From Haliotis rufescens (taxonomy: Eukaryota), in assembly GCF_023055435.1 (NCBI RefSeq), contig NW_025964201.1:2542001-2606000 (forward strand): a stretch of DNA of 64,000 bases, in the 5' to 3' direction. Position numbers and translations under genes: made by a program. Below, piece by piece: positions 661-3,600 of this stretch. Positions within the stretch are counted from its first letter, which is position 1. Each line of letters begins with the position of its first letter. The notes below the pieces were generated by a model. That model searched no databases. It was not told where the DNA came from and was given only the letters and a program-made list of their open reading frames with translations.

Positions 661-3600
661 CTACGTGTTTATATTGACCTTGGCATGTCCGTGGACATCC
701 TGTATGCTGGTGTAGTGGACATGGTCCGAGCAGGCAACGAGGCTTTGTTCAGTGCAGAAGACAGTGCTATATGTCGTGTCCATTAAACCGCTGTAAGGCC
801 TCGCAGACTCGGTGTGATCACCTGACTGCCCCACGTGACCTAGTTGTGAGTACGTGGGCTCCTCTCTCTGATCAGGTACCACTGCGGTATTCCTGGATGG
901 TTTAATTGCCTTGCTGAAATAAAACATATAACTGTTAAAGGAGAAAACTCTTACAGTAGCACGTTATGACTACAACTACAACAATATGAGGGGAGGTGAA
1001 ATTGGGTTTAACGTCGCGTCCAAGATTATTGCACTTATATAGCGACGTGCATGTACGTGTGTGTGTTTGTGTGGCTGCTTGTACTAGTCCGGACTGATGC
1101 CGATTTATAGTGCTAGCTCACTGAGTTACCATGCCGCAGTTTAACATGAATACCCCACTCAGACACAGTATACTGACTCCGAGCCGACCAGTCCTTCTTT
1201 TAGCCCCTTAATGCCGAACGCCAGACAGGGTAACAACAAGTACCATCTTAAAACGTCTTTTGGTATGACGCGGTCGGGATCGAACCCCGGACCTTCCGCT
1301 CTCCGGGCGGACGCTACAACAATATGAAATGGTATGATGTTGAGAGATGCGGTGTCTTTTCGAGGCGTTCCTGGCCTTTCTACCTATCTGCATGAACCAA
1401 TAATATGTCAATAGTCATCAGCAAGAGGAAAGTGACAACAAACATCAGTACGAGCTGAATAGTGACAGGATACATCAACAGCAAGTGATTAGTGGCAAGA
1501 AAAGTCAACAGCAAGTGACTAGTGGCAAGAAAAGTCGACAGCAAGTGATTAGTGGCAAGAAAAGTCAACAGCAAGTGACTAGTGGCAAGAAAAGTCAACA
1601 GCAAGTGACTAGTGACAAGATACATCAACAGCAAGTGACTAATGACAAGAAACATCAACAGCAAGTGACTAATGACAAGAAACATCAACGGCAAGTGACT
1701 AACGACAAGAAACATCAATACCAAGTGACTAGTGACAATAAACATCAACAGTAAATGACTAGTGACAAGAAACTTCAACAGCAAGTGACTAATGACAGGA
1801 AACATCAACATCTTGTGAGTAATGACAGTAACTTCAACATCTGGTGAATAGTGACAGTAACTTAAACATCTTGTAAATTGTGACAGTAACATCAACACCT
1901 GGTAAAAAGTGACAGTAACATCAACATCAGATGAATAGTGACAGTAATTTAAACACCTTGTAAATAGTGACAGTAACTTTAACATCTTGTAAATAGTGAC
2001 AGTAACTTAAACATCTTGTAAATAGTGACAGTAACTTCAACATCTTGTAAATTGTGACAGTAACATCAACACCTGGTAAATAGTGACAGTAACATCAACA
2101 TCAGATGAATAGTGACAGTAATTTAAACATCTTGTTAATAGTGACAGTAACTTAAACATCTTGTAAATAGTGACAGTAACTTAAACATCTTGTAAATAGT
2201 GACAGTAACTTCAACATATTATAAATAGTGACAGTTACTTCAACACCTGGTGACAGTAACATCAACATCTTGTAAATAGTGACAGTAACTTCAACATATT
2301 GTAAATAGTGACAGTAACTTCAACATCTGGTGAATAGTGACTGTATAGTATGACCAGAAATAATTGAGAATTTTAGGGATATGTTTAAGTGGATATCTAG
2401 TATAAAAAAACACTGACCAGCTATCAAGTGCTTGGTTTCATTCAAGAGAGACAACCCAGTTAATCCTATTTCATTAGTTTGTCATGATCAAGAGCTATCC
2501 CCCTTTGTTTACTTGCTAGCAGACGTCATTTTCAGTGATCCTCAGTATGGATGATTTAGAGAAGAGGAGGTTGATTTTAGAGTATTAAAACAAGGACATC
2601 AGATCAGCTAAAGTGATTTCAAGTAGAACAGGCATCCCTTTGTCCACTGTTTATCGTGTTTTGAAAAATATTGAAAAAGGGGATGGCATTGAGCACAAGA
2701 GAGGCGCAGGTAGGCCCAGAAAATTGACAGTCGGTGACAGGAGGCGGCTTGGTATTCTTGTTTCTAAAAACAAACGAAGGAGTTAAGAAAACTTAAGACT
2801 GGATATGATTGATAGAGGAACTGTGGCTGTCTGTAAGGAGACAATTAGAACTGAGCTGCATGCAGTAGGTTGGGAGAAAAGTCGGGGAATTCCATCACCG
2901 ATCATGAAACCTGAACAAAAGGAGAGAAGGTTGAACTGGTGCTTAGAGCATAGAAATTTTAACAGGGACAATGTGATTTTCTCAGATGAAAGTTCTGTGT
3001 GGCTGTTTCCTAATACACTAAAATTCTGGACCAAACAAACTGAAAAAACTTTGTATCAGCACCCAAAGTACAGTCCAAAATTCCACGTGCGGGGTGGCAT
3101 ATCTGTGTTAGGGGCAACGCCCATGTGTGTATTTGAAGGAAATATGAACATTGAGCGGTACACAGATATTCTCGAAGGACATTTACTTCCATCTGCTCAA
3201 GTATTCTATGGAAATTCTTGGATTCTCCAGCAAGACAACGACCCAAAACATCGTTCAAAGCATTCTCAGGCCTGGTTTCGGACCCACAATATGACACTAC
3301 TAGACTGGCCAAGCAATAGCCCTGTCCTAAATCCAATAGAAAATGTTTGGGGGCTTATGAAGGAAAGTGTCAATAAAAAAATCTGACAAATATTGCTGAA
3401 ATGGAAGAAGAGGTGGTCCGAAAGTGAGACAGCATGAACCACGACTTTCTAACTTCTTTGATCAGCAGTATGCCCCGCCGCCTTGAAGTCTGCATTGCTG
3501 CCCATGGTGACTTGACAAAATACTAAGTGTTCACCTGTCTTTGAAGCTGGAGTTATGTTGTACTAATATTCACATTAAATTTTAATACGTGAGTAATGAG

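Follow-up and report, generated by a model that had tools for sequence, protein, structure and literature searches.

A candidate inhibitory receptor sharing a near-identical lectin exon with its neighbours in a receptor cluster of the abalone Haliotis rufescens

Background

The term merohomogenization was given by Fossum et al. to a pattern in paired opposing receptors of leukocytes, including KLRC/NKG2, Ly49, PIR and DCIR/DCAR (PMC3210942), and the same pattern of conversion has been described for Siglec-11/16 (PMC5701461). Among invertebrates, the fester co-receptors (FcoR) of Botryllus are encoded in clusters and carry ITIM, ITSM and hemITAM motifs with the core YxxI/L/V, their ectodomains and tails being mixed by intergenic recombination (bioRxiv 10.1101/2024.10.16.618699). 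The Alr proteins of Hydractinia are clustered single-pass receptors with tails of ITAM/ITIM consensus, and homologues of SHP, SHIP and Syk are present in the genome; the function of the motifs is inferred in that account (PMC9546547). Two further systems link an ITIM to an SH2 phosphatase: in the oyster pair CgNCAM1-SHIP2 the ITIM receptor is reported to bind the phosphatase and to inhibit (PMC11841013), and in Drosophila inhibition by the ITIM of Draper-II is reported to be exerted via Corkscrew (reviewed in PMC9008705).

In the abalone Haliotis rufescens six genes encoding SUEL, CUB and transmembrane (TM) parts lie head to tail in about 80 kb. The window, the whole stretch of 64,000 nucleotides that was analyzed, holds genes 3, 2 and 1 of this cluster; genes 0, -1 and -2 lie to the left of it. 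By analogy the cluster appears to resemble a vertebrate paired-receptor locus, while belonging to none of those families. As in the vertebrate systems cited, the genes are adjacent, the ligand-binding exon is more similar among paralogues within a species than among orthologues, the signalling parts are conserved gene by gene and one partner bears an ITIM-type tail. Unlike the vertebrate receptors, to which they have no homology, the abalone proteins combine SUEL and CUB domains where the vertebrate ones have C-type lectin or Ig domains, the candidate activating partner bears an ITAM-like pair of its own and lacks a charged TM residue through which an adaptor could associate, one tip is combined with three types of tail, and the system is known here from sequence alone.

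The Botryllus FcoR genes are likewise an invertebrate receptor cluster with such tyrosine motifs. They belong, however, to a chordate, have other domains and are tied to allorecognition, and their diversification is ascribed to recombination and not to lineage-wise homogenisation of one ligand exon. The Hydractinia Alr system is like that of abalone in clustering, tail consensus and effector homologues, but it is cnidarian and its ectodomains are Ig/Fn3. Oyster NCAM1 and Draper differ from gene 1 in having unrelated ectodomains; Draper switches by splicing, and no converted partner gene is described in the accessible parts of these sources. SUEL/rhamnose-binding lectin proteins (CSL3, SUL-I and the latrophilin lectin domain) share the fold and a weak Pfam match with gene 1, which differs from them in lacking the YGR and DPC motifs and in its single-pass SUEL-CUB-stalk-TM architecture. 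The named relatives with this architecture that were found here are all labelled 'uncharacterized', 'hypothetical' or 'mucin-like'. A literature search, with most subscription journals outside its scope, found no prior account of the SUEL-CUB family described here, nor of molluscan paired receptors with homogenisation.

Results and Discussion

Gene 1 (LOC125372774) comprises seven exons on the minus strand (9046-661), all with GT-AG sites, and has a 401-aa open frame (Table 1). A sequence-only reading of the window had proposed that the exon 913-661 is spliced to the TM exon and encodes a tail of about 84 aa with four tyrosines, all in YxxL/V/I context. In-frame joining of the TM exon, which has a phase-2 donor, to 913-661 gives an 84-aa tail (the junction Phe plus 83 aa), and reading it in that frame confirmed the four tyrosines and their context. 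The splice was also borne out, by two RefSeq models and by the structure of the paralogues. A query with the tail alone matched one protein, RefSeq XP_048239359.1 (LOC125372774), whose exon junctions are identical from exon 2 onward, and the H. cracherodii orthologue model, 94% identical, also uses the TM-exon/913 junction. In a neighbouring paralogue the homologous TM and tail exons are 177 bases apart and in the same phase. Because of this arrangement and the two RefSeq models, the 5171/913 junction is very likely. The product of gene 1 is a single-pass membrane protein with the motifs in its cytoplasmic tail.

Contigs of four public runs were also compared with the gene; these runs are presumed to be RNA, none being recorded as such, and they carry no tissue or level information. 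In all four the contigs cover exons 2-6 and not unique intron sequence, and the 5270/5397 joint is present. In three of the four the match stops at the donor 5171 and the contig continues for 14, 45 or 356 letters; the 913 acceptor and the 5171/913 junction were not seen in the contigs of the four runs. At the other end of the gene, the RefSeq model begins within exon 2, without exon 1, and a presumed-RNA contig extends upstream past the exon 2 acceptor with no tie to exon 1.

Table 1. Features of gene 1 and of neighbouring genes (positions in the window unless stated)
Feature	Position	Strand	Description
Exon 1	8971..9046	-	Predicted signal peptide; ATG, hydrophobic stretch, GT donor, phase 1, frame open into exon 2
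Exon 2	7646..7945	-	SUEL/RBL-fold lectin-like domain; PF02140 match and paralogue fold
Exon 3	7123..7473	-	CUB-fold domain; AlphaFold2 and Foldseek
Exon 4	5880..5951	-	Linker/stalk; RefSeq and contigs
Exon 5	5397..5450	-	Ser/Thr-rich stalk; RefSeq
Exon 6	5171..5270	-	Transmembrane helix without charged residue; phase-2 donor
Exon 7	661..913	-	Cytoplasmic tail, 83 aa and stop; homologous to neighbour's tail exon (45-47%)
PTYSQL	841..858	-	Membrane-proximal YxxL
RPYSGL	784..801	-	YxxL core; specific to gene 1
TTYSTV(F)	760..777	-	ITSM consensus; matches the C-SH2 library motif of SHP2; found in gene 1 alone
Lost-Tyr position	747..755	-	First Tyr of the family's ITAM-like pair; Cys here, TGC against the neighbour's TAC (codon comparison)
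VHYTSI	703..720	-	ITIM consensus; matches the library motifs of both SH2 domains of SHP2 at -2, +1 and +3
Gene 2	15738..17967	-	SUEL, CUB, TM and Tyr-rich tail paralogue; mapped without first exon
Gene 3 (LOC124112376)	25353..29300	-	SUEL, CUB, TM and tail with YxxL-x11-YxxL; mapped without first exon
Gene 0 (LOC124112373)	G000:C423 2.527-2.538 Mb, outside the window		Neighbour of gene 1

The SUEL/rhamnose-binding lectin fold and cysteine pattern were both found in the ectodomain, the Pfam match being weak (exon 2 against PF02140, E=3.4e-5, 24.6 bits, below the curated cut-off of 31.4) and the fold coming from the model of an H. asinina paralogue, which matched the latrophilin lectin domain and rhamnose-binding lectins (Z 6.3-7.0, rmsd 3.1-3.5, 86-90 residues aligned). 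The sugar-binding motifs of rhamnose-binding lectins are YGR and DPCxxTxKY (PMC3269628). Both are absent from the SUEL domain of gene 1, which has QYQNM and TVCGDTATYH in their places, and rhamnose binding is therefore not expected. Exon 3 had no Pfam match to a CUB domain by sequence. Its AlphaFold2 model (pLDDT 78) is that of a CUB beta-sandwich, and the top eight Foldseek matches were all CUB domains (TM 0.59-0.71, best E 2.8e-4). Foldseek with the whole two-domain model was uninformative and was replaced by single-domain and VIA searches.

The four tyrosines of the tail, which has no others, have their codons at 852, 795, 771 and 714. With ITSM defined as TxYxx(V/I) and ITIM as (S/I/V/L)xYxx(I/V/L) (PMC12151841), TTYSTV fits the ITSM and VHYTSI the ITIM, as had been proposed, and the two are spaced 19 residues apart. 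The tyrosine of PTYSQL is common to several paralogues (ExTY..[LFY].HV) and is missing from gene 0 of H. asinina and H. rubra. Two other motif classes were tried: EEPTYSQL does not fit the hemITAM definition [ED][ED][ED]xYxxL (bioRxiv 10.1101/2024.10.16.618699), and no ITAM (Yxx[LI]x6-12Yxx[LI]) occurs within the gene 1 tail.

Four of four tyrosines in such a context had been held unlikely to arise by chance. This stands for the YxxL/V/I cores, which arose four out of four in 0.05% of 200,000 tail shuffles (p=5e-4), and at the rate of the family (72 of the 239 tyrosines in 37 distant tails have L/I/V at +3) would do so at p=0.008. Rows without a TM, tails of less than 20 aa, the cluster's own genes and one cadherin-like row (P0037) were excluded from this background, in which none of the 28 tails with at least three tyrosines has every tyrosine in YxxL/I/V context. 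The ITIM and ITSM labels add less. In the same shuffles an ITIM match was found in 16%, an ITSM match in 5.5% and both in 0.7%, and when the tyrosines and the +3 residues were fixed the two appeared together in 14% (p=0.14); in the distant tails an ITIM match occurs in 4/37 and an ITSM match in 1/37. The cores exceed chance, and the ITIM/ITSM labels alone are weak evidence.

Sites were also scored against the SHP2 library preferences at -2, +1 and +3, ignoring minor ones at -1 and +2, with the N-SH2 motif as quoted in PMC12151841 and the C-SH2 motif taken from Table 3 of PMC12878756. Two library-type sites were found in the gene 1 tail of each of the two species, against one in total over the other 10 cluster tails and 4 among the 239 tyrosines of the 37 distant tails, so that gene 1 is the only gene of the cluster with two sites fitting the SH2 motifs of SHP2. 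The shuffle probability of two such sites is 0.002, or 0.05 given the YxxL/V/I cores.

The motifs are kept in the second haplotype and in H. cracherodii (94% identical), where a fifth (YAKV) is added and the cores are 5/5; a single close orthologue is without discriminating power, and the differences between the two tails (seven substitutions and one insertion, the motifs spared) are too few to show selection. Among named proteins gene 1 was found in H. rufescens and H. cracherodii only. An orthologue was not found in the annotation of H. asinina or H. rubra, an annotation gap not being a proven loss.

The gene 0 tail is homologous to that of gene 1, but its tyrosines differ. Yxx[LI]-x9-Yxx[LI] occurs in all four gene 0 copies, from three species (H. 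rufescens with two haplotypes, H. asinina and H. rubra; shuffle p 0.003-0.007), and the ITAM consensus in neither of the two gene 1 copies. This pair is without the acidic residues usual ahead of an ITAM. It satisfies the ITAM definition applied to the Hydractinia Alr proteins (PMC9546547). A similar pair, ending DH[DE]Y or DEHNY, is retained with spacing x11 in gene 3 and x12 in three H. rubra relatives of roughly 25% identity, indicating that the tyrosine pair is old; since it is kept in gene 0, gene 3 and these relatives, its loss in gene 1 is derived. At the position of the lost tyrosine the other haplotype and H. cracherodii have Ser, and the +3 Leu is gone too. VHYTSI is likely to be the second tyrosine of the ancestral pair moved by one residue (DHVHY against DHEY), and RPYSGL and TTYSTV are new in gene 1.

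The tail of gene -1 (LOC124112371), 350 aa long and unrelated, contains YAKV, YQEI, YEEI, NxLY and PPPY and is kept in four species. These elements can be read as Src, PTB and WW sites. Consensus matches of the inhibitory type are not confined to gene 1: the ITIM consensus also occurs in gene 0 of H. rubra and H. asinina (SPY[TS]NL) and, as IQYEEI, in gene -1 of three of the four species, and the ITSM consensus in gene 0 of H. rubra and of the C281 haplotype, so that three of the four gene 0 copies match one or the other. The sequence-only reading of the gene 1 tail as inhibitory and SHP-recruiting was upheld in its gene structure, its motifs and the beyond-chance YxxL/V/I context, but a consensus match does not fix polarity, as the ITIM matches in paralogue tails and in ectodomains show. 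SHP recruitment by the gene 1 tail is plausible because its two SHP2-library sites are unique in the cluster and SHP2- and SHIP2-like SH2 exons are present in the genome. The paired-receptor pattern of the cluster is a better argument for an inhibitory role than the consensus matches.

This pattern was seen in the SUEL exon. The tract 7919-7639 of gene 1 is 93-94% identical in DNA to that of genes 0 and -1. When gene 1 was compared with gene 0, synonymous differences were found at 4 of 59 sites in SUEL, as opposed to 49/80 in CUB and 32/53 in the tail (Fisher p 1e-11 and 7e-10), and dS is 0.07 in SUEL against 1.2-1.3 in CUB and tail. Within rufescens/cracherodii the SUEL domains of genes 1, 0 and -1 are 89-97% identical, and those of gene 0 and gene -1 in H. 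asinina 99%, whereas SUEL orthologues between the two lineages are 68-82% identical. Over the four abalone species compared, SUEL clusters by lineage and not by gene. On the other hand, the TM and tail cluster by gene, with 57-95% identity within a gene and 23-54% between genes; gene 0 tails are 57-93% identical over three species and gene -1 tails 66-95% over four, gene 1 being represented in two. The SUEL domain, the putative ligand-binding part, has been homogenised between neighbours after speciation, while the signalling parts are distinct and orthologous over species.

AU tests rejected the orthologue clades for SUEL (p 1e-5 twice) and for the CUB of gene 0 (p 4e-59). For SUEL the gene 1 clade was not rejected (p 0.42), and the tree therefore gives no demonstration of gene 1 conversion since the rufescens-cracherodii split. 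In the second haplotype (C281, collinear) a 509-base stretch of gene 0, 95% identical to gene 1, holds the start of the gene 1 SUEL exon together with some 200 bases of gene 1 intron. This indicates that the exchange is recent and that on at least one occasion gene 1 was the donor and gene 0 the recipient. The SUEL exon is likely to have been kept near-identical by gene conversion.

The CUB of gene 1 is not homogenised (44-54% identical to its neighbours, compared with 66-73% for the rufescens-asinina split). Gene 3 and gene 2 are 80% identical in SUEL and 48% in CUB. In H. rubra the CUB domains of gene 0 and gene -1 are 82% identical, which does not exceed the identity of each to H. asinina (79-82%), and recent homogenisation is therefore not shown in that species; the CUB table omits gene -1 of H. 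cracherodii, and the H. rubra gene 0 model is without most of SUEL. Among gene 0 alleles and in gene -1 the ectodomains had dN >= dS, which was not significant for positive selection (p 0.26, 0.47). Genes 0 and -1 resemble each other in their exons and, beyond these, share only short repeats. Conversion occurs among tandem genes even in the absence of selection, and nothing but the exons may be similar enough to undergo it.

Candidate partners for the tails are encoded in the genome. Two SH2 exons 4.3 kb apart had PTPN11 as best match among solved structures (PDB) and are SHP2-like, and further SH2 exons were best matched to SHIP2, SYK and CSK. Effectors of SHP and SHIP type are present at this level, the search having tested 6 of 43 SH2 matches and the identities being those of SH2 exons alone.

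We tentatively propose, with confidence somewhat short of even, that within a set of paired receptors gene 1 is the partner that inhibits or dampens, sharing the ligand of its neighbours, recruiting SHP2 and opposing a Syk-recruiting neighbour. Gene 1 would bind the same ligand as genes 0 and -1 through the near-identical lectin exon and would be co-expressed with them. A Src-family kinase would phosphorylate its tail, and TTYSTV and VHYTSI in their phosphorylated form would be expected to attract SHP2, a phosphatase with tandem SH2 domains. The ITAM-type pair of gene 0 would bind Syk, and SHP2 held at gene 1 may dampen the signal of this neighbour, the sign of the effect being our inference. 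An immune role of gene 1 is assumed.

Alternatively, the tail could serve as an all-purpose scaffold for phosphotyrosine docking that has no inhibitory polarity. A single ligand would then be coupled by the cluster to several outputs, such as positive action of SHP2 on Ras/ERK and the binding of Src-family proteins or adaptors, and these could operate in immunity but equally in development, adhesion or sensing. SHP2 frequently signals positively (PMC12878756), and over five non-redundant cluster tails L/I/V is enriched at +3 (18/30 tyrosines against 1-6/30 at eight other offsets) and not at -2 (4/30), as docking would have it; gene -1 moreover carries a third kind of tail beneath the same ectodomain. 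We consider this rather unlikely; it gives no reason for the loss of the old tyrosine pair, and the gain of two SHP2-type sites, in gene 1 alone.

YxxPhi is a sorting signal for clathrin adaptors, and its consensus is identical to the core observed. The motifs might accordingly remain unphosphorylated and gene 1 be an endocytic or decoy receptor that clears the ligand shared with its neighbours. The first motif is about 20 residues from the membrane, its tyrosine and bulky +3 residue are common to several paralogues, and a decoy too would benefit from a homogenised ligand domain. Sorting needs fewer than four such sites, however, Val at +3 is a poor sorting residue, and at two sites the -2 and +1 residues fit SHP2 motifs. 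We hold this explanation to be decidedly unlikely.

We regard it as very unlikely that drift in a young tail under rapid change produced the ITIM/ITSM matches incidentally and that homogenisation of the exon reflects neutral conversion of tandem duplicates. The frequency of the ITIM consensus in shuffles and its two to three matches in each of three ectodomains agree with drift, as do the choice of window and gene after the fact and the single close orthologue, but the cores (4/4, and 5/5 in H. cracherodii) contrast with the 0/28 of the distant tails, and the homogenisation recurs in separate lineages with the tails kept. Nor is gene 1 young, because its CUB exon predates the rufescens-asinina split (46-54% against 66-73%). 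Scarcely credible is that 913-661 is not the main tail exon and that the TM exon is read through or joined nearer, giving a short tyrosine-free tail: the 4.26-kb TM-to-tail intron does hold other in-frame acceptors (4879, 4014 and more) and the 913 junction is without direct sighting in RNA-type contigs, but 913 is used in both RefSeq models, genes 0, 2 and 3 have tail exons of the same phase and start, and the contigs use the 5171 donor.

Conclusions

ITIM-consensus tails are already known in molluscs and are ordinary on their own. The conversion pattern is an evolutionary argument, independent of motif matching, that the receptors would have to track one ligand while their outputs differ. 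It is possible, although we hold it to be the less probable outcome, that abalones independently evolved paired opposing receptors of vertebrate style on a SUEL-CUB scaffold, an ITAM-type ancestor having given rise to an SHP2-recruiting inhibitor by loss and gain of tyrosines, and ongoing conversion wiring one fast-evolving ligand exon to three outputs (inhibitory, Syk-activating and multi-docking). If the polarity holds, paired activating and inhibitory receptors with homogenisation of the ligand domain would have arisen again, in a mollusc, on an unrelated scaffold and in an 'activating first' order. Abalone would then add a protostome example of merohomogenization, which would point to a ligand that is self or mimicked by a pathogen. 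Three genes with one tip and different tails would allow ITAM/ITIM integration in lophotrochozoans to be tested directly, and the cluster would be a candidate locus for the genetics of disease resistance in abalone.

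Modular tails of the SUEL-CUB family

The gene to the left of gene 0 in the H. rufescens cluster, gene -1, encodes the same SUEL-CUB tip that gene 0 has, but carries it on a 350-aa multi-motif tail which is unrelated to the gene 0 tail and is conserved in four species. In H. asinina, the SUEL and CUB of gene 0 and gene -1 are 97-99% identical.

The SUEL and CUB exons of gene 0 are tandemly duplicated (3080 bases) in the second haplotype, C281. The gene 0 CUB is only 81% identical between the C281 and C423 alleles, with dN above dS, although not significantly so. In the haplotype represented by locus L008 the 3' end of the gene 0 tail enters a 68-70-base tandem array of about 4 kb, and the annotated C-terminus is thereby changed. 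Genes 2 and 3 are 82% identical in SUEL DNA compared to 70% in CUB, and an older conversion possibly took place inside this second pair.

Location of features
Feature	Location	Strand	Remark
Gene -1	G000:C423 2510860-2516000 (L009, L010)
Alternative haplotype of gene 0	G000:C281 (L017-L020)
Tandem array at 3' end of gene 0 tail	L008 1-4430
SUEL shared by genes 2 and 3	window 17701-17938 and 29003-29240
Further membrane gene, Thr/Ser-rich stalk	near window 46900-46500	(-)
Further membrane gene, TM exon	near window 44120-44030	(-)
Further membrane gene, last exon	window 43757-42632	(-)
Transposase-like remnant 1	window 2787-3383	(+)	within last intron of gene 1
Transposase-like remnant 2	window 20652-21227	(+)

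Both remnants resemble Tc1/mariner transposase, as judged by DDE motifs. The last exon of the further membrane gene is a 25-aa tandem repeat containing DNDLY nine times and DNDLC and DNDIY once each, a putative tyrosine-docking tail that was lengthened by a minisatellite. Similar xND[LMV]Y motifs occur in the related proteins P0009, P0014, P0018 and P0077.

Two other contigs (G000:C445, 41.0-47.4 Mb; C179, 6.5-7.7 Mb) hold clusters of further sequences that match the exons of gene 1 weakly, some CUB-like and some SUEL-like. In P0012, P0013 and P0011 (gene -2), which belong to the family, the tail is either absent, leaving a hydrophobic C-terminus, or short and without YxxL; these proteins are candidate decoys, the tailless ones perhaps GPI-anchored. 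A second abalone group (P0014-P0018, P0024, P0077) has similar ectodomains on tails of two kinds, short ITAM-like or long xNDLY, and may be a second instance of this modular pattern at another locus.
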